From NCBI GenBank assembly GCA_000004985.1, contig GG739036.1: a DNA stretch of 9,488 bases; one strand, written 5' to 3'. This stretch comes from Naegleria gruberi (taxonomy: Eukaryota). Shown here in pieces: positions 1-9,488 of this stretch. The stretch's first letter is position 1; the number at the start of each line of letters is the position of its first letter. A model generated the notes under the pieces. That model did no database searches. It was not told where the DNA came from and saw only the letters and a list, made by a program, of their open reading frames with translations. A program made the translations under genes and the position numbers.

Positions 1-1289
1 AGATACATTTATTCACACTGATATACATCTGGTATCAATTTTAGTGTTTTAGAATTGAATTCAATATGATAATAATAACATTCTGTCAAATTGTCATATT
101 TCAACATATAGAATGAATACCATCTCAGTCAGTTTACAAAATATCATACTTGTATCAAATATGAATACACTTCCCTTGATGAGGAGAACAATCTGAGAAA
201 GTTTTATATTCATGGCAACATTCCATCTAAGGTAATCAAAAGGGAAGATTATACAAGAATAATACATTCAATTATTATATTCATGTCAGTAATCAGTGAA
301 GGTGACACTTCTTTCACCTTATACACATCTCAATATCTAGACTGTCTATTCCACTGAAACTTGAAATATTACCTATCTAGATGATATAATGATGACTCTC
401 CATAGTAACATACATGTGAAATTGAATATTGACACTTTTCATCTTGTTATATTTATAGAGATGGTATCCAACAGAGTCAGTTCACAATCTTAAATATTGA
501 AACTCATTCTGTATGACATACGTGATGTATAGAACGGTTTTTTTATTGAATGTAATCAGTTTGAAATAATTTGATGAAATTGACACTGTCTAATCACCTT
601 TACATGACAAATAGTCCATTGCTTACATTCCATCTCAGTCACTTCAGCGATTTATTGGTTAATTCCACCAACAGTATGTTTCTCATACATTTTAGTACAG
701 TTTATATTTCAAGAGTGATTTCTGTGTAGATTATTATAATCGTAATTCCATGCAATACCAATAAAACTCAGTAGAAGAGTTAATTCTTCTCATTTTCAAA
801 TAGATTATTCAATATAGAACACATCTAGATAGTTTCCAGATCATAAAAGTCAAGATACTATATATGGTCTTTGATTAAATTTAAAAATAGACTGCCGTTA
901 ATTACTGGAATATTAATATTCAAAGCTTGATGAGCAAGCTATTGATTGAAATCCAACCGATTATTGAATATTGATTATTGAATTGGTGAATAATCACTCT
1001 TGATAATGTTACTTATTCATATTGCATGCAAATCAACCTGATTCAATCTACTTCTCAAAGTCCATAATACAAAAGTTGATACTGACCTGACCTTTAAATA
1101 TCTGTCAATATAAGAAATGAAACCATCAAATTTACATCATTTATAGATGATAAGAAATATAATCAATGATATGAATCTTCACTAAGTAATCTATTAAATA
1201 ACCCAAATAAATCAATTCTGAATCCTAACCTTACACCTTTTATTTAATAAATATTAAATTTTATAAGGTTAATCTTTTCCAATTGATTC

Positions 1290-2357
1290 TTAAACAATTT
1301 GACAAATTAAAATCAAATCATGATATGATTTTGGGAATGGTTTGATTGGTGATTTCTTTCTTGGTGGTCCAATATGTGGATATTGTTGGAAATCAAATGG
1401 AACATCTCCTTCATATCCAAGTACATCTCCAATTCCAGCAATTATTTTCATATTTCCGTTCTTGAAAATCTTTCTTACGCAATGATTATAGTGGTCAGCA
1501 AAATAAACTTGATTTTTTGAATCAACAAATATTCCTGTTGGCCAACAAAGTTTTGTTCTTGTTGCTAATTTAAAATCTCCATTATATCCTTTTTTTCCTG
1601 GAATTCCTGCAATGTTTTTGATGATTCCATTGGGTAATATCTTTCTTATCACATGATTGTCTAAATCTGAAAAGTAAATTTCATCATTGTGAACAAAGAG
1701 AGAGTCAGGGTTGTTCAAACTTGTATCAGTGGCATTCCTTCTATCTCCATTGTATCCTTCAATTCCATTTCCTGCAATTGTGTGGATAATTCCATTTCTA
1801 TCAATTTTTCTAATCCTATTACTGAAGGAATCTGCAATGTAAATTTCATCTTTGTATTGAAATACACTACTAGGGTATCTCAATGAAGCCAATGTTGCCA
1901 ATTGATTATCTCCGTTGTATGTCATAATTCCATTTCCAGCAATTGTGCGGATGATGCCATTTCTATCAATCTTTCTCACACGATGATTTCTTTTATCACA
2001 AAATAATACTTCATCATTGTCAGTAATAAAAAGACCACAAGGAGAGTTCAATTTTGTATTTACAGCCAATTGATCATCTCCATTGTATTCTGTTTCATAT
2101 GTTCCGGCAATTTTTGAAATGATTCCAAATTCATCAATCTTGAAAATCAAATTACGTTCACCTTCCGAAATATAAACTTGATTTGATGATGAAACAACAA
2201 TAGAAGATGGATCATACAATGATCCACGCTCATTTCCTGCAATTGTTACAATTTGACCATTCCGAAGCAATTTTCTCACTCGATCATTACCCGTATCAGC
2301 AATAAATACTTCGTCATTTGAAACAAAAACGGCACTTGGACGATTGAGGTTTGACAT
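1290..2357 (-). CDS. Intact gene for an NHL-repeat six-bladed beta-propeller protein (355 aa). It has no N-terminal RING, B-box or coiled coil and no signal peptide.
   Basis: Single uninterrupted ORF with an ATG at 2355-2357 in an A-rich context (caaaaaaATGtc) and a TAA stop at 1290-1292. The translation contains six tandem units of about 47-55 aa, each of the form [PS]xx[IVL]FVxx(D/N)(E/Q)[IV][YF][IF][AS]DxxN(H/D)R[IV]RK[IL]xxNGxIxTIAG followed by a G(Y)NGDxxxAT..L..P linker. This is the NHL repeat signature (NCL-1/HT2A/LIN-41 family propeller). Blade starts in the protein: AVFVSNDEVFIADTGNDRVRKLL, SSIVVSSSNQVYISEGERNLIFKI, PCGLFITDNDEVLFCDKRNHRVRKI, PSSVFQYKDEIYIADSFSNRIRKI, PDSLFVHNDEIYFSDLDNHVIRKI, PTGIFVDSKNQVYFADHYNHCVRKI. 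On the minus strand, TTTATT/AATAAA lies about 45 nt downstream of the stop (plus coordinates about 1240-1252). Confidence 0.8.
   Translation of the reverse strand: MSNLNRPSAVFVSNDEVFIADTGNDRVRKLLRNGQIVTIAGNERGSLYDPSSIVVSSSNQVYISEGERNLIFKIDEFGIISKIAGTYETEYNGDDQLAVNTKLNSPCGLFITDNDEVLFCDKRNHRVRKIDRNGIIRTIAGNGIMTYNGDNQLATLASLRYPSSVFQYKDEIYIADSFSNRIRKIDRNGIIHTIAGNGIEGYNGDRRNATDTSLNNPDSLFVHNDEIYFSDLDNHVIRKILPNGIIKNIAGIPGKKGYNGDFKLATRTKLCWPTGIFVDSKNQVYFADHYNHCVRKIFKNGNMKIIAGIGDVLGYEGDVPFDFQQYPHIGPPRKKSPIKPFPKSYHDLILICQIV
1761..1813 (-). repeat. Copy 1 of an intragenic tandem DNA repeat: NHL blade 4 coding segment, about 89% identical to 1926-1978.
   Basis: aattccatttcctgcaattgtgtggataattccatttctatcaatttttct (1761-) aligns with aattccatttccagcaattgtgcggatgatgccatttctatcaatctttct (1926-), about 47 of 53 identical. 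The offset is 165 nt, i.e. 55 codons, exactly one blade. The encoded peptides are RIRKIDRNGIIHTIAGNGI versus RVRKIDRNGIIRTIAGNGI. Confidence 0.6.
1926..1978 (-). repeat. Copy 2 of the intragenic tandem DNA repeat: NHL blade 3 coding segment.
   Basis: See the partner repeat at 1761-1813. Nucleotide identity is far higher than between the other blades, implying a recent blade duplication or gene conversion. Confidence 0.6.
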
Positions 2358-3164
2358 TTTTTTGATGGTTGTGAACGAACCTGTTGATCATTCAATCCAC
2401 ATTTTTGAGTGTTGGATATATATTCTGTGAATGTTTGAATATTCTTCACAATCATCCCTTCACAAATACACCTTTACACTAATGAATCTGAATAGGAGGG
2501 AACACCAGACAATTAACTCTGTGCCCTGTAGAACTTTGATATATTTGAGTAAGATTCCATTGACAATGTGAAACAGTCAATCGCCTTTTCATAATCACAA
2601 GCATTCCTGTATGGCCATTCCATTAAGAAAATTGTAAAAGGATTTGATCTTCTCTTTTGTTCCCCAAATTGGATTAAGATTGACAATAGTCTTAATATTA
2701 ATATCTTTTGTTATATCTATAGAAGCTAATAGGTTCAAAGCAGAATGATTATTACCATTAGAAATATCAATCAAAGCCTTTACCAAAATACAAATCAACT
2801 CAACTTCTGGGCTACCGATTACACAACAAGTCAAGGTCCTTAATTGAATCAGTCAATGATAATGGAATATTAACGGAAAGCCTGTCAGGAATATGACGAC
2901 TATCCCGCGATTCATGTCATGGTATTTTGGAACTTGAAGTACATTAGACATCATAACGTAGTGTGTTGAATCTTCAGAGTAGTTTAAAAAAAGAATAATA
3001 CCATAATGAAGTGAATTTAAAACAAACTGAAGGTTAGAGAGCTTGTGAAATTGAATTGTATTTGAGGCATGTAGTGTAATTCTAACATCACGATCAGCTC
3101 ATTTCTCTGAAGTGTTGGTGGCGAAACTCCACCCATGCCTTTTTACTTCATGAAGTAAAAAAAA

Positions 3165-3827
3165 ATGTCTGAAGAAGTACGTTCGTGTAGTGTTTCCTTC
3201 TGTCATCGGTCAACCAAAACACTTGTCAGAAATGTCCGAATTCTACGTTGGAGATGAAGCTCAATCAAAACGAGGTCTATTAAATTTGAGAAATCCAATC
3301 AATCAAGGAATTGTCAATAATTGGGATGATATGGAAAGGATTTGGTTTCATACTTTTTACAATGAATTGAGAGTTGTTTTGAGGAATATCCAATATTGAT
3401 GAGTGAAGTTGCGTTGAATCTCAAGACAAATAGAGAGATGATGTCACAAGTCATGTTTGAAAAATTTTGTGTGCCAGCTCTGTATGTTGCTAATAGAGCT
3501 GTCTTGGCATTGTACGCTTCTGGAAAAAGTACTGGAATGATTGTGAATTCTGGAGATTCTGTCACTCATGCCGTTCCTATTTATGAAGGTCATACTCTGC
3601 CACATGCCATTTTGAAAATGGAAATGAAAATGTTAACAGAAAGAGGATACACTTTCACTAACACTGCTGAAAGAGAAATAGATCGTAAAGAAAAGCTCTG
3701 TTACCTTGCTCTCTATTTTCAAGAGGAAATGAATTCGGTTGTAAGAGAGGAACCAACCATTGATAGAAAATTGTATGATATACCAAAGGGTAATGTTGTC
3801 ACTCTTGGGAATGAAAGATTCAGATGA
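3165..3827 (+). pseudogene. Actin-derived pseudogene: N-terminally deleted, frameshifted, internally deleted and C-terminally truncated.
   Basis: ATG at 3165 in the context aaaaaaaaATGtct, reading MSEEV (compare actin M-x-DEEV). Frame +1 from about 3181 then reads [64 protein letters not shown], which corresponds to actin [69 protein letters not shown]. About 22 codons are missing ([22 protein letters not shown], the phosphate-1 loop), and the deletion length is not a multiple of three. At 3375-3380 'gtt gtt tt gag gaa' replaces the expected 6 nt for Ala-Pro, a 1-nt frameshift. Frame 0 then continues [117 protein letters not shown]...[12 protein letters not shown]. Relative to actin this lacks AGRDLTDYLM (10 aa) and VRDI is reduced to DR. 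A TGA at 3825-3827 ends homology at about actin residue 210, and no CPEALFQPSFLG follows. Confidence 0.75.
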
Positions 3828-3833
3828 ACATTT

Positions 3834-3839
3834 AAAAAA
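3834..3839 (-). terminator. RNA polymerase III oligo-T terminator of the 5S rRNA gene (T6 on the minus strand).
   Basis: The plus strand reads aaaaaa at 3834-3839, immediately 3' on the minus strand of the 5S end ...GCTGTAGTCTTTGC. A T-run of at least 4 on the coding strand is the canonical pol III termination signal. Confidence 0.55.
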
Positions 3840-3962
3840 GCAAAGACTACAGCACCACAGGTTCCCAAGTTGTCTCCAACCTCAGTACTGATGTGGCTCG
3901 ACGATGCTTAACTTCTCAAATCGGACGGGATGAGGTGTATTCATCGTGATATGGCCGTAGCC
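3840..3962 (-). rRNA. 5S ribosomal RNA gene, complete and about 120 nt long. Not in the ORF track.
   Basis: The minus-strand sequence is GGCTACGGCCATATCACGATGAATACACCTCATCCCGTCCGATTTGAGAAGTTAAGCATCGTCGAGCCACATCAGTACTGAGGTTGGAGACAACTTGGGAACCTGTGGTGCTGTAGTCTTTGC. It matches the eukaryotic 5S consensus throughout: the 5' GGCTACGGCCATA-CAC start, box A (GAAGTTAAGCA-CGTCG at about +45-62), box C (TCAGTACTGAGGTTGGAGAC...CTGGGAA at about +70-100), and the 3' GGTGCTGTAG-CTTT end. Helix I closes, with 5' GGCUACGGC pairing to 3' GCUGUAGUC through G-U wobbles. It is followed by an oligo-T terminator. Confidence 0.9.
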
Positions 3963-3985
3963 ATCATTTATCTTAATTCTTAGTA
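3963..3985 (-). promoter_or_regulatory. Conserved 5'-flanking block upstream of 5S copy 1, a possible upstream promoter element, with a TATA-like tract (TTTTTATAC) further upstream.
   Basis: On the minus strand, TACTAAGAATTAAGATAAATGAT sits immediately 5' of the 5S start. It is conserved in copy 2 with 2 mismatches in 23 (TACAAAGAATTGAGATAAATGAT), whereas sequence further upstream diverges by indels. TTTTTATAC lies at about -25 to -33 on the minus strand (plus coordinates about 3986-3995). That 5S genes in some eukaryotes use upstream elements is established knowledge; a function here is inferred. Confidence 0.3.
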
Positions 3986-4144
3986 TAAAAACAATCTCAT
4001 AACACTCATCAAGCAATTACTGATAATCCTTTATTTATTCAAAACCAATTGTTCAGCCACTGAATTTGTACTATCAATATGTTTCGTGTTTTAAAGTAAT
4101 TAAGGAAGGCGTGCTAATGTTGTTATCTTAATAAATGGGTTGAC

Positions 4145-4347
4145 CTAACATTTAAGTTTATCAAAAACCATCTTCCCATTTTGTGGTAAAGCTAATTCAA
4201 GTGCATTGAAACCCTTCGAATAAATCACCTTTTCTAATTTTGGTAATTTTAATAAAGATTCCAATCCAAACTGATCTATTTCAGCATATTTGATGGAGAG
4301 TTTCTTAATAGACTCAAATTTAGAGAAATGTTCTGCTAATTCATTGG
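4145..4347 (-). CDS. 3' end of a leucine-rich-repeat-like protein gene. It is partial, with the 5' part lost in the assembly gap.
   Basis: A 67-codon open frame on the minus strand ends at a TAG (plus coordinates 4145-4147). The translation (N to C) is ...NELAEHFSKFESIKKLSIKYAEIDQFGLESLLKLPKLEKVIYSKGFNALELALPQNGKMVFDKLKC*. It shows LxxLxxLxxL / LxL spacing typical of LRR or RNI-like C-terminal regions. The open frame is long for a sequence this AT-rich. The opposite-strand frame is full of TAA codons. Confidence 0.5.
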
Positions 4348-7300
4348 NNNNNNNNNNNNNNNNNNNNNNNNNNNNNNNNNNNNNNNNNNNNNNNNNNNNN
4401 NNNNNNNNNNNNNNNNNNNNNNNNNNNNNNNNNNNNNNNNNNNNNNNNNNNNNNNNNNNNNNNNNNNNNNNNNNNNNNNNNNNNNNNNNNNNNNNNNNNN
4501 NNNNNNNNNNNNNNNNNNNNNNNNNNNNNNNNNNNNNNNNNNNNNNNNNNNNNNNNNNNNNNNNNNNNNNNNNNNNNNNNNNNNNNNNNNNNNNNNNNNN
4601 NNNNNNNNNNNNNNNNNNNNNNNNNNNNNNNNNNNNNNNNNNNNNNNNNNNNNNNNNNNNNNNNNNNNNNNNNNNNNNNNNNNNNNNNNNNNNNNNNNNN
4701 NNNNNNNNNNNNNNNNNNNNNNNNNNNNNNNNNNNNNNNNNNNNNNNNNNNNNNNNNNNNNNNNNNNNNNNNNNNNNNNNNNNNNNNNNNNNNNNNNNNN
4801 NNNNNNNNNNNNNNNNNNNNNNNNNNNNNNNNNNNNNNNNNNNNNNNNNNNNNNNNNNNNNNNNNNNNNNNNNNNNNNNNNNNNNNNNNNNNNNNNNNNN
4901 NNNNNNNNNNNNNNNNNNNNNNNNNNNNNNNNNNNNNNNNNNNNNNNNNNNNNNNNNNNNNNNNNNNNNNNNNNNNNNNNNNNNNNNNNNNNNNNNNNNN
5001 NNNNNNNNNNNNNNNNNNNNNNNNNNNNNNNNNNNNNNNNNNNNNNNNNNNNNNNNNNNNNNNNNNNNNNNNNNNNNNNNNNNNNNNNNNNNNNNNNNNN
5101 NNNNNNNNNNNNNNNNNNNNNNNNNNNNNNNNNNNNNNNNNNNNNNNNNNNNNNNNNNNNNNNNNNNNNNNNNNNNNNNNNNNNNNNNNNNNNNNNNNNN
5201 NNNNNNNNNNNNNNNNNNNNNNNNNNNNNNNNNNNNNNNNNNNNNNNNNNNNNNNNNNNNNNNNNNNNNNNNNNNNNNNNNNNNNNNNNNNNNNNNNNNN
5301 NNNNNNNNNNNNNNNNNNNNNNNNNNNNNNNNNNNNNNNNNNNNNNNNNNNNNNNNNNNNNNNNNNNNNNNNNNNNNNNNNNNNNNNNNNNNNNNNNNNN
5401 NNNNNNNNNNNNNNNNNNNNNNNNNNNNNNNNNNNNNNNNNNNNNNNNNNNNNNNNNNNNNNNNNNNNNNNNNNNNNNNNNNNNNNNNNNNNNNNNNNNN
5501 NNNNNNNNNNNNNNNNNNNNNNNNNNNNNNNNNNNNNNNNNNNNNNNNNNNNNNNNNNNNNNNNNNNNNNNNNNNNNNNNNNNNNNNNNNNNNNNNNNNN
5601 NNNNNNNNNNNNNNNNNNNNNNNNNNNNNNNNNNNNNNNNNNNNNNNNNNNNNNNNNNNNNNNNNNNNNNNNNNNNNNNNNNNNNNNNNNNNNNNNNNNN
5701 NNNNNNNNNNNNNNNNNNNNNNNNNNNNNNNNNNNNNNNNNNNNNNNNNNNNNNNNNNNNNNNNNNNNNNNNNNNNNNNNNNNNNNNNNNNNNNNNNNNN
5801 NNNNNNNNNNNNNNNNNNNNNNNNNNNNNNNNNNNNNNNNNNNNNNNNNNNNNNNNNNNNNNNNNNNNNNNNNNNNNNNNNNNNNNNNNNNNNNNNNNNN
5901 NNNNNNNNNNNNNNNNNNNNNNNNNNNNNNNNNNNNNNNNNNNNNNNNNNNNNNNNNNNNNNNNNNNNNNNNNNNNNNNNNNNNNNNNNNNNNNNNNNNN
6001 NNNNNNNNNNNNNNNNNNNNNNNNNNNNNNNNNNNNNNNNNNNNNNNNNNNNNNNNNNNNNNNNNNNNNNNNNNNNNNNNNNNNNNNNNNNNNNNNNNNN
6101 NNNNNNNNNNNNNNNNNNNNNNNNNNNNNNNNNNNNNNNNNNNNNNNNNNNNNNNNNNNNNNNNNNNNNNNNNNNNNNNNNNNNNNNNNNNNNNNNNNNN
6201 NNNNNNNNNNNNNNNNNNNNNNNNNNNNNNNNNNNNNNNNNNNNNNNNNNNNNNNNNNNNNNNNNNNNNNNNNNNNNNNNNNNNNNNNNNNNNNNNNNNN
6301 NNNNNNNNNNNNNNNNNNNNNNNNNNNNNNNNNNNNNNNNNNNNNNNNNNNNNNNNNNNNNNNNNNNNNNNNNNNNNNNNNNNNNNNNNNNNNNNNNNNN
6401 NNNNNNNNNNNNNNNNNNNNNNNNNNNNNNNNNNNNNNNNNNNNNNNNNNNNNNNNNNNNNNNNNNNNNNNNNNNNNNNNNNNNNNNNNNNNNNNNNNNN
6501 NNNNNNNNNNNNNNNNNNNNNNNNNNNNNNNNNNNNNNNNNNNNNNNNNNNNNNNNNNNNNNNNNNNNNNNNNNNNNNNNNNNNNNNNNNNNNNNNNNNN
6601 NNNNNNNNNNNNNNNNNNNNNNNNNNNNNNNNNNNNNNNNNNNNNNNNNNNNNNNNNNNNNNNNNNNNNNNNNNNNNNNNNNNNNNNNNNNNNNNNNNNN
6701 NNNNNNNNNNNNNNNNNNNNNNNNNNNNNNNNNNNNNNNNNNNNNNNNNNNNNNNNNNNNNNNNNNNNNNNNNNNNNNNNNNNNNNNNNNNNNNNNNNNN
6801 NNNNNNNNNNNNNNNNNNNNNNNNNNNNNNNNNNNNNNNNNNNNNNNNNNNNNNNNNNNNNNNNNNNNNNNNNNNNNNNNNNNNNNNNNNNNNNNNNNNN
6901 NNNNNNNNNNNNNNNNNNNNNNNNNNNNNNNNNNNNNNNNNNNNNNNNNNNNNNNNNNNNNNNNNNNNNNNNNNNNNNNNNNNNNNNNNNNNNNNNNNNN
7001 NNNNNNNNNNNNNNNNNNNNNNNNNNNNNNNNNNNNNNNNNNNNNNNNNNNNNNNNNNNNNNNNNNNNNNNNNNNNNNNNNNNNNNNNNNNNNNNNNNNN
7101 NNNNNNNNNNNNNNNNNNNNNNNNNNNNNNNNNNNNNNNNNNNNNNNNNNNNNNNNNNNNNNNNNNNNNNNNNNNNNNNNNNNNNNNNNNNNNNNNNNNN
7201 NNNNNNNNNNNNNNNNNNNNNNNNNNNNNNNNNNNNNNNNNNNNNNNNNNNNNNNNNNNNNNNNNNNNNNNNNNNNNNNNNNNNNNNNNNNNNNNNNNNN

Positions 7301-8463
7301 NNNNNNNNNNNNNNNNNNNNNNNNNNNNNNNNNNNNNNNNNNNNNNNNNNNNNNNNNNNNNNNNNNNNNNNNNNNNNNNNNNNNNNNNNNNNNNNNNNNN
7401 NNNNNNNNNNNNNNNNNNNNNNNNNNNNNNNNNNNNNNNNNNNNNNNNNNNNNNNNNNNNNNNNNNNNNNNNNNNNNNNNNNNNNNNNNNNNNNNNNNNN
7501 NNNNNNNNNNNNNNNNNNNNNNNNNNNNNNNNNNNNNNNNNNNNNNNNNNNNNNNNNNNNNNNNNNNNNNNNNNNNNNNNNNNNNNNNNNNNNNNNNNNN
7601 NNNNNNNNNNNNNNNNNNNNNNNNNNNNNNNNNNNNNNNNNNNNNNNNNNNNNNNNNNNNNNNNNNNNNNNNNNNNNNNNNNNNNNNNNNNNNNNNNNNN
7701 NNNNNNNNNNNNNNNNNNNNNNNNNNNNNNNNNNNNNNNNNNNNNNNNNNNNNNNNNNNNNNNNNNNNNNNNNNNNNNNNNNNNNNNNNNNNNNNNNNNN
7801 NNNNNNNNNNNNNNNNNNNNNNNNNNNNNNNNNNNNNNNNNNNNNNNNNNNNNNNNNNNNNNNNNNNNNNNNNNNNNNNNNNNNNNNNNNNNNNNNNNNN
7901 NNNNNNNNNNNNNNNNNNNNNNNNNNNNNNNNNNNNNNNNNNNNNNNNNNNNNNNNNNNNNNNNNNNNNNNNNNNNNNNNNNNNNNNNNNNNNNNNNNNN
8001 NNNNNNNNNNNNNNNNNNNNNNNNNNNNNNNNNNNNNNNNNNNNNNNNNNNNNNNNNNNNNNNNNNNNNNNNNNNNNNNNNNNNNNNNNNNNNNNNNNNN
8101 NNNNNNNNNNNNNNNNNNNNNNNNNNNNNNNNNNNNNNNNNNNNNNNNNNNNNNNNNNNNNNNNNNNNNNNNNNNNNNNNNNNNNNNNNNNNNNNNNNNN
8201 NNNNNNNNNNNNNNNNNNNNNNNNNNNNNNNNNNNNNNNNNNNNNNNNNNNNNNNNNNNNNNNNNNNNNNNNNNNNNNNNNNNNNNNNNNNNNNNNNNNN
8301 NNNNNNNNNNNNNNNNNNNNNNNNNNNNNNNNNNNNNNNNNNNNNNNNNNNNNNNNNNNNNNNNNNNNNNNNNNNNNNNNNNNNNNNNNNNNNNNNNNNN
8401 NNNNNNNNNNNNNNNNNNNNNNNNNNNNNNNNNNNNNNNNNNNNNNNNNNNNNNNNNNNNNNN
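4348..8463. other. Assembly gap: 4116 consecutive N.
   Basis: Uninterrupted n from 4348 to 8463. The ORFs 4290..8513 (+) and 4341..8483 (-) in the supplied track are artefacts of translating N as X. Confidence 0.97.
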
Positions 8464-8526
8464 CGACGATGCTTACTTCTCAAATCGGACGGGATGAGGT
8501 GTATTCATCGTGATATGGCCGTAGCC
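8464..8526 (-). rRNA. 5S rRNA gene, second copy. It is partial: only the 5' 63 nt are visible and the 3' part is in the gap. It has a 1-nt deletion in box A.
   Basis: The minus-strand sequence is GGCTACGGCCATATCACGATGAATACACCTCATCCCGTCCGATTTGAGAAG-TAAGCATCGTCG. It is identical to copy 1 (3899-3962) except that GTTAAGC is reduced to GTAAGC. The gap edge cuts the gene at about nt 63. Confidence 0.8.
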
Positions 8527-8549
8527 ATCATTTATCTCAATTCTTTGTA
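8527..8549 (-). promoter_or_regulatory. Conserved 5'-flanking block upstream of 5S copy 2.
   Basis: On the plus strand, atcatttatctcaattctttgta matches atcatttatcttaattcttagta at 3963-3985 in 21 of 23 positions. Further out, aaacaacctcaaacaca and aaacaatctcataacac are related, but there are indels. Confidence 0.3.
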
Positions 8550-8773
8550 TTTAATTTTTAGAATAGAAACAACCTCAAACACATTACTTAATGTTAACCT
8601 TATGTTGAATCATATTAATGGTTCCTTAAAACCTAAAGCTTAATTTCATTGTTCTTAATTGCTCGGAATTGTATTATTCCCGCCAAAAGAAAACTCTGAA
8701 CATCCTACAAAAAAAATAGCACAACTCGACAACTTCACCAATACTGTATTAATACATTAAGGTTTGATGTAAC

Positions 8774-9488
8774 ATGACCGATCGAACAAACAAGAGAGTT
8801 CATGTTGAAGGCTTGCTGAAGAGAAAGATGATTGAGGAGACCTCACAATCTGATTCTCAATTCATCAAGGGAAGCAAGGGATCTTCAAGTTTCGCTCAAC
8901 CATCAACTCCCAAGTCAACCAGAAGGAAAATCAAACAAGACAATCGTAGCAATGATATGTTTACCATTCCTAACCAATTGAAGTCTGTGTTTTACTCTCA
9001 AGAAAATTCCTATCAACCAATAAGCCTCAACTCAAAATCTTCAAAGATATTTAATTCATCTTTGCCTCCAACCTTTGCAAACTTTGGAACGATTGAACAA
9101 TCAACTAATAATCCTTTCCAATTTTCAAATCCGAATAATAACTCTATACAATATTCAGAAGATGACATCTTCCGTCCTTCTGCTCAATCAACAACATTCA
9201 CTCCAAGCAAGAGAATTGATTCATCAAACAATTCTTCTCCATTCTTTAAGAGTGCAAACTCCTTTGATTCTGATTACAATCCTACACCATTCTCTCCAAT
9301 CAAAGCACAAGGAAATATCCATAAGAATAGCCTCTTCTCAAATACACAAGCCGGCAGCTGTGGTTCTTTCGAGTTCGAAGAGCAAATCAACCAACAGGCC
9401 CATCAACCAGATACGAAATTCAATCTTTTTAGGCAACAGCAACCCCGTGAGGAAGTCGATTTATTCTCTCCTTGCAACCAAATCGTAC
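8774..9488 (+). CDS. 5'-complete, 3'-open CDS (at least 238 codons) for an S/N/Q/P-rich low-complexity, likely intrinsically disordered, protein of unknown function.
   Basis: ATG at 8774 (gtaacATGacc). There is no stop codon in frame through the window end at 9488. The translation is MTDRTNKRVHVEGLLKRKMIEETSQSDSQFIKGSKGSSSFAQPSTPKSTRRKIKQDNRSNDMFTIPNQLKSVFYSQENSYQPISLNSKSSKIFNSSLPPTFANFGTIEQSTNNPFQFSNPNNNSIQYSEDDIFRPSAQSTTFTPSKRIDSSNNSSPFFKSANSFDSDYNPTPFSPIKAQGNIHKNSLFSNTQAGSCGSFEFEEQINQQAHQPDTKFNLFRQQQPREEVDLFSPCNQIV... It contains one NPF tripeptide and several PF/FxF motifs. It is not in the ORF track, probably because it runs off the window. Confidence 0.6.
   Translation, partial: MTDRTNKRVHVEGLLKRKMIEETSQSDSQFIKGSKGSSSFAQPSTPKSTRRKIKQDNRSNDMFTIPNQLKSVFYSQENSYQPISLNSKSSKIFNSSLPPTFANFGTIEQSTNNPFQFSNPNNNSIQYSEDDIFRPSAQSTTFTPSKRIDSSNNSSPFFKSANSFDSDYNPTPFSPIKAQGNIHKNSLFSNTQAGSCGSFEFEEQINQQAHQPDTKFNLFRQQQPREEVDLFSPCNQIV

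Follow-up and report, generated by a model that had tools for sequence, protein, structure and literature searches.

In Schizosaccharomyces pombe, Neurospora crassa and other filamentous fungi, 5S rRNA genes are dispersed and carry an upstream TATA-like element. The Xenopus-type 5S rDNA is organized in tandem arrays and uses a type 1 RNA polymerase III (pol III) promoter with a TFIIIA-dependent internal control region (ICR). For Naegleria gruberi, a BLASTn survey of the JGI assembly listed 279 putative 5S genes (Feng et al., 2012; PLoS One 7:e36878, PMC3369914). According to that survey, the genes occur without linkage to the rDNA unit, 'tandem arrangement' is scored as present, and an ICR, a TATA box and T-runs are described for the family, while TFIIIA is not detectable in N. 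gruberi (Feng et al., 2012). Our literature search found nothing specific on Naegleria 5S organization beyond this study.

Here we describe a 9,488-nt stretch of DNA, referred to as the window, which corresponds to N. gruberi scaffold_203. The window carries a complete 5S gene, copy 1, and part of a second, copy 2. Copy 1 is already known, having been catalogued in 2012 as entry R33356 (scaffold_203:3843-3959, similarity 0.758) of Table S1 (Feng et al., 2012), and because it is listed there it is not a discovery of the present analysis. Its similarity value places it in the top class of that table. The entry and copy 1 are the same locus with coordinates that agree within 1-3 nt; the BLAST-based boundaries of the entry omit the first 3 nt of the gene.

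Identity, extent and flanking elements of copy 1

The features of copy 1 and its immediate surroundings are as follows.

3844-3962, minus strand: 5S rRNA gene copy 1, complete, nuclear, 119 nt (RF00001 match, structure and Table S1 row)
3834-3839, minus strand: T6 run, probable pol III terminator (read from the sequence)
3866-3913, minus strand: putative equivalent of the internal control region, with box A at +50 to +64, intermediate element at +67 to +72 and box C at +80 to +97
3963-3990, minus strand: conserved upstream block of copy 1, -1 to -28, the sole flank in common with copy 2 and also found in the metagenome contig L005
3984-3987, minus strand: TATA-like element TATA of copy 1, -25 to -22 (from the sequence)
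3968-3980, minus strand: motif AGAATTAAGATAA in the upstream block of copy 1, conserved in copy 2 and L005

The first-pass annotation of this DNA had read a complete eukaryotic 5S rRNA on the minus strand and had named, in advance, a covariance-model search with RF00001 as the check. That search returned a strong match over the full model (positions 1-120), at 106 bits where the gathering score is 38 (E=4.4e-23), and the call therefore stands. The span of 3834-3962 that the annotation had delimited corresponds to the 5S gene plus its terminator. In part, the reverse complement of 3844-3962 reads GGCTACGGCC...GAAGTTAAGCATCGTCG...CAGTACTGAGGTTGGAGAC...GGTGCTGTAGTCT; the complete minus-strand letters of the interval are GGCTACGGCCATATCACGATGAATACACCTCATCCCGTCCGATTTGAGAAGTTAAGCATCGTCGAGCCACATCAGTACTGAGGTTGGAGACAACTTGGGAACCTGTGGTGCTGTAGTCT. 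In the Rfam scan of the whole window, RF00001 at 3844-3962 on the minus strand was the sole family above threshold. A permissive Rfam search of positions 1-4347 and 8464-9488 added, besides 5S, chance-level matches to mir-1297, psbT-asRNA, SOX2OT, SNORD19 and sR43, all far under their own thresholds, and a tRNA scan of the window found no tRNA genes.

The predicted RNA structure agrees with this identification. When the Rfam consensus structure was mapped on the 119 nt, 34 of 34 consensus pairs were canonical in copy 1. The minimum free energy of the RNA is -41.2 kcal/mol (z = -3.1 against dinucleotide shuffles), and the minimum-energy fold has a three-way junction as in the consensus. To the pairing of helices I-V, which the first-pass annotation had also put forward as a check, covariation among related sequences lends further weight. 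These relatives were gathered with a 27-mer covering helix III and loop C (CATCCCGTCCGATTTGAGAAGTTAAGC), which retrieved 13 metagenome contigs, every one of them carrying a 5S gene above the Rfam threshold; the 29 nt at the 5' end of the gene found no match in the metagenomes. The contigs yielded nine distinct full-length 5S sequences, across which 98.7% of cells were paired, and 13 pairs in helices I, II, IV and the distal helix had changed on both sides. None of 500 shuffles reached the observed values. When the 3' partners were slid by 1-3 columns, pairing fell to 27-41% and compensatory pairs to 0-3. Helices III and V are invariant in the nine-sequence set and therefore uninformative.

The closest of these relatives is on JGI metagenome contig Ga0247722_10036048 (L005), whose 5S gene lies at 539-657 on the minus strand and scores 106.3 bits. 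It differs from copy 1 by 2 nt, both at unpaired positions, and has the upstream block in common with it. The gene lies 166 nt from a divergent open frame of 361 aa (823-1908, plus strand), a setting like that of the window copies. Judging by these sequences, L005 probably comes from a close Naegleria relative. The remaining 12 contigs (L001-L004 and L006-L012 from VFQM/VFQO, and L013 from LLBY) carry 5S genes with about 80% overall identity, rising to full identity over nt 26-57. The flanks differ from copy to copy, the stretch near -25 is AT-rich, the terminator is T4-T5, and contig GC is 33-40%, with L013 at 51%. These contigs point to 5S genes being dispersed in at least one other eukaryote.

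The same alignment fixes the 5' end of the gene. The helix I pairs 1-118, 2-117 and 3-116 all form in copy 1, and because pair 3-116 covaries from GC to CG in the relatives, the 5' end is placed at 3962 rather than at 3959, with GGC at 3960-3962 (minus strand) as the first three bases.

Upstream of the gene, a short block is common to copy 1, copy 2 and L005. In all three sequences there is a TATA-like element near -25 (TATA, AATA and TTATA, respectively), followed by AGAATT[A/G]A[G/C]ATAA at about -18 to -6, a few bases, and then GAT directly before +1. The motif AGAATTRASATAA occurs twice in the window, both times upstream of a 5S copy, where 0.00 occurrences are expected by chance. The AGAATTRAGATAA block at -18 to -6 appears specific to Naegleria. 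The conservation of the upstream block suggests that these genes depend more strongly on an upstream promoter than Xenopus-type 5S genes do. Within the gene, identity to the Xenopus somatic 5S sequence amounts to 11/15 positions in box A, 3/6 in the intermediate element and 11/18 in box C. This match is weak evidence for a TFIIIA-type promoter, and it overlaps bases that are structurally constrained. Scans for bacterial-type promoters and terminators around the gene returned chance-level results, which are not relevant to a eukaryote.

Downstream, the gene had been described as followed by T6. The T6 run is indeed present; it does not adjoin the gene directly, as TTGC lies between the mature 3' end and the run. 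Read along the minus strand, there is a T3 at the mature 3' end, then GC, and then T6. In related copies, T4-T5 stands directly at the 3' end. Because the first T-run of copy 1 is only T3, against T4-T5 in its relatives, termination would have to rely on the downstream T6.

These elements suggest how copy 1 may work. Pol III would be recruited via the TATA-like element and the AGAATTRAGATAA block, both within 28 nt upstream, and the internal box A and box C region probably joins in this recruitment. Transcription would start at the G at 3962. It might stop at the T3 of the mature 3' end, but the T6 run 5 nt beyond is the likelier stop, and the extra 3' bases would then be trimmed. Such 3' trimming of 5S precursors is established in yeast and animals. 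The 119-nt RNA is predicted to fold into a three-way junction with helices I-V and would enter the large ribosomal subunit.

We are highly confident that 3844-3962 on the minus strand is an intact N. gruberi nuclear 5S gene belonging to a dispersed family of about 279 copies, and copy 1 is, by its sequence and predicted structure, almost certainly functional as a 5S gene. It might instead be a surplus copy that has lost transcription and is silent or decaying, within degenerate DNA beside an actin pseudogene. The adjoining actin copy is clearly decayed, the first T-run of copy 1 is weakened, copy 2 has a 1-nt deletion (see below), and Table S1 holds many truncated or divergent entries (80-112 nt, similarity 0.5-0.73), so that 5S pseudogenes do exist in this genome. 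However, copy 1 is full length with every consensus pair canonical, scores 106.0 bits where the best environmental relative scores 106.3, differs from L005 at unpaired positions only, keeps both the upstream block and the T6 run, and ranks in the top similarity class of Table S1. We consider a silent copy quite unlikely.

The second copy, the assembly gap and the 5S family

To the right of copy 1, the window is interrupted by an assembly gap, beyond which part of a second 5S gene is visible.

4348-8463, no strand: assembly gap of 4116 N (from the sequence)
8464-8526, minus strand: 5S copy 2, 5' 63 nt only, cut by the gap (RF00001, 43.1 bits, model positions 1-65)
8527-8554, minus strand: conserved upstream block of copy 2 (alignment with copy 1)
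8532-8544, minus strand: motif AGAATTGAGATAA in the upstream block of copy 2 (motif scan)

A conserved block recurring on the other side of the gap had been noticed in the first-pass annotation and put down to the 5S gene. It proved to be a gap-truncated second 5S copy together with its 28 promoter-proximal nucleotides. The RF00001 match of copy 2 is flagged as cut at its 3' end by the N-run, and the repetition is seen at the DNA level as a 76-nt direct repeat with 97% identity (3911-3986 and 8475-8550). In the alignment, copies 1 and 2 are alike only through the gene and about 28 nt upstream; their farther flanks are unrelated. The two genes have the same orientation, and their starts lie 4564 bp apart if the gap has its estimated size. 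Copy 2 is one base short, with GAAGTAAGC in place of GAAGTTAAGC. What is missing is a single T within the conserved GAAGUUAAGC, at a distance of 12 nt from where the contig ends (8464-8480, minus strand), and this could be a sequencing error at a read end or a genuine defect. Copy 2 is absent from Table S1, which has a single row for scaffold_203. As 5S is a high-copy repeat, the assembly probably broke at copy 2.

The gap also accounts for part of the open reading frame track. The frames 4290..8513 on the plus strand and 4341..8483 on the minus strand are all-X artefacts of the N-run. The latter had been dismissed as spurious because it was thought to overlap or abut copy 1; it is spurious, being almost all N, and its start lies inside copy 2 rather than copy 1. 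A further frame, 3314..3565 on the minus strand, had been set aside for the same reason. Here too the frame is likely spurious, because it is antisense to the actin pseudogene, and the supposed overlap or abutment does not hold, as it lies 279 nt from the 5S gene.

To place the pair within the family, we computed same-scaffold spacings (162 in number) from the 279 coordinates of Table S1. The entries are spread over 117 scaffolds, 57 of which have a single copy. The median same-scaffold spacing is 34 kb; 38 of the 162 spacings are at most 6 kb and one is below 1 kb. In all, 72 copies have a neighbor within 6 kb. The family is thus dispersed with loose clusters 1-6 kb apart, which is a better label than 'tandem', and the 4.56-kb pair in the window is a typical loose cluster.

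This distribution bears directly on the possibility that a head-to-tail tandem 5S rDNA array is hidden in the gap, with the two copies as its visible edges. The two genes share an orientation, the 4.1-kb gap has its right edge inside a 5S gene, and a tandem arrangement was scored as present by Feng et al., 2012. An array of short units would nevertheless be hard to reconcile with the upstream flanks of the two copies, which are unrelated beyond -28, with the left edge of the gap, which is unique open-frame sequence rather than 5S spacer, and with the Table S1 spacings, whose median of 34 kb and single value below 1 kb describe loose clusters. Neither the flanks of the two copies nor these spacings revealed a homogeneous spacer or head-to-tail units, and we regard a hidden array as very unlikely. 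One or two further dispersed 5S copies inside the gap are possible.

The actin pseudogene and its junction with copy 1

On the other side of copy 1 lies the remnant of an actin gene.

3165-3827, plus strand: actin pseudogene, a truncated and frameshifted partial duplicate of NAEGRDRAFT_60876 (Pfam, tblastn)

Two PF00022 matches (E=2e-17 and 7e-31) identify the sequence as actin. For tblastn, human ACTB and P0121, the 362-aa product of the full-length N. gruberi paralogue NAEGRDRAFT_60876 found by database search, were used as queries. Human ACTB residues 28-97 align in frame +1 (3184-3378) and residues 99-256 in frame +3 (3381-3824). Compared with P0121, the copy is 97% identical over residues 27-91 and, with gaps included, 82% identical over residues 93-242. 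The copy starts with MSEEV at 3165 and then changes frame; parent residues 6-26, with the DNGSG phosphate-binding loop among them, are lost. A 1-nt frameshift follows at 3379-3380, there are in-frame deletions of 10 and 2 residues, and the stop comes directly after GNERFR, at the equivalent of R242 of 362, the last 120 residues being absent from the window. The first-pass description of this sequence as an actin pseudogene is thus borne out by two frame changes, two internal deletions and the missing last 120 residues relative to P0121, and the sequence comparison points to a partial duplicate that is young and has decayed.

The annotated 128-aa model P0123 (MSQVMF...GNERFR; 3441-3827, plus strand) covers only the tail of the actin fragment. 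It is the longest open piece of the truncated, frameshifted duplicate and is probably a mis-called pseudogene fragment. Separately, at 3561-3599 (plus strand) the pseudogene keeps an actin segment of 13 residues that is absent from P0121, which reads SVMLCHAIL there (residues 153-156). The parent gene model is probably mis-spliced, with an intron called in error; alternatively, the pseudogene stems from a paralogue other than P0121.

The 5S gene had been described as convergent on the actin pseudogene, and this is what we find, with the 3' end of the plus-strand actin sequence 6 nt from the 5S terminator. Actin homology itself stops at 3824-3826, about 7 nt from the T6 run. An actin end so close to a 5S terminator may be coincidental, or it may stem from cassette-like insertion or from rearrangement at a fragile site associated with pol III. 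The 120 codons that the actin copy has lost do not reappear on the far side of the 5S gene, so this is not a simple insertion.

A more general, and in our estimation unlikely, idea is that Naegleria 5S genes propagate, or draw rearrangements, in the form of a minimal cassette of about 170 bp that reaches from -28 to the terminator. The actin duplicate in the window, which is young (82-97% identical to its parent at the protein level) and stops about 7 nt short of a terminator, would fit a DNA-level insertion of such a 5S cassette, or the capture of duplicated DNA at a fragile site that a pol III gene creates. If this were true genome-wide, 5S genes would drive gene-fragment duplication and pseudogene formation.

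Insertion could also have been the work of a mobile or retroposed element derived from 5S, either SINE-like or transposon-borne, that landed in the actin gene and truncated it. The close approach of actin homology to the T6 run, the compactness of the unit common to the copies, at about 170 bp from -28 to the terminator, and the scatter of copies over 117 scaffolds would all be expected of such an element. But the common unit reaches 28 nt beyond +1 on the upstream side, and a copy made through RNA would not carry these nucleotides; the unit has no poly-A and no SINE tail unrelated to 5S; and the missing actin codons are not found beyond the 5S gene. A search for a target-site duplication found no direct repeat of at least 7 nt flanking the copy 1 unit, so that the hallmarks of a SINE or retroposed copy were absent on each of these counts. 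We judge a mobile element to be very unlikely. A mitochondrial or bacterial origin of the 5S sequence was rejected, given the nuclear scaffold, the nuclear neighbors, the pol III T-run and the approximately 279 copies.

Neighboring genes, annotation and comparison with known systems

Further open frames in the window are the following.

4145-4347, minus strand: putative open frame of 66 codons plus stop, a 3' end running out of the gap (six-frame translation)
8774-9488, plus strand: open frame, 238 codons or longer, that continues past the scaffold end (six-frame translation)
1290-2357, minus strand: NHL-repeat protein gene, 355 aa (Pfam NHL and TEN_NHL)

Both 5S copies occupy short intergenic spaces. 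The 4145-4347 frame (NELAEHFSKFESIKKLSIKYAEIDQFGLESLLKLPKLEKV...) is on the same strand as copy 1 and stops 183 nt upstream of it; it has no Pfam match. It may represent the final part of a gene with a 3' UTR nearing the 5S promoter. The frame at 8774-9488, likewise with no Pfam match, is divergent from copy 2, with 248 nt from the 5S +1 to its ATG.

The 355-aa NHL-repeat frame is 100% identical to an N. gruberi predicted protein (P0001), which establishes this species as the source of the window. Internal DNA repeats at 1406-2329 (minus strand) with a period of about 165-171 nt (families D3-D6) correspond to the NHL blades and are not a separate repeat element. Just upstream of this gene, at 2513-2834 (minus strand), are two overlapping short frames in different reading frames, of which the one at 2598-2834 has no Pfam match. 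An upstream exon, the remains of a decayed gene and noise are all possible readings of these frames.

For annotation, an rRNA feature is due at 3844-3962 and a partial one at 8464-8526, both on the minus strand; the 128-aa actin-fragment model should be flagged as a pseudogene, and the frames over the N-run should be ignored. Beyond such annotation hygiene, the importance of the locus is very small. To the published record it adds a correction of the 5' end by 3 nt, the conservation of AGAATTRAGATAA and a TATA-like element in two genomic copies and an environmental Naegleria relative, and the description of the 5S family as dispersed with loose clusters rather than tandem. Together with the reported absence of TFIIIA, the upstream block offers a concrete mutation target for a study of the pol III promoter in Heterolobosea.

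Compared with the Xenopus-type system, copy 1 has in common the predicted RNA fold, probable termination at a T-run and a partial match to box A and box C. In contrast to that system, the N. gruberi genes do not form a homogeneous tandem array, the intermediate element of copy 1 matches poorly (3/6), and TFIIIA is reported as not detectable. The dispersed 5S genes of fungi offer a further likeness. There, as in N. gruberi, single units stand apart among pol II genes, conservation between copies is limited to the gene and a short AT-rich element upstream, and truncated pseudogene copies occur too. The two differ in lineage, N. gruberi belonging to the Heterolobosea.
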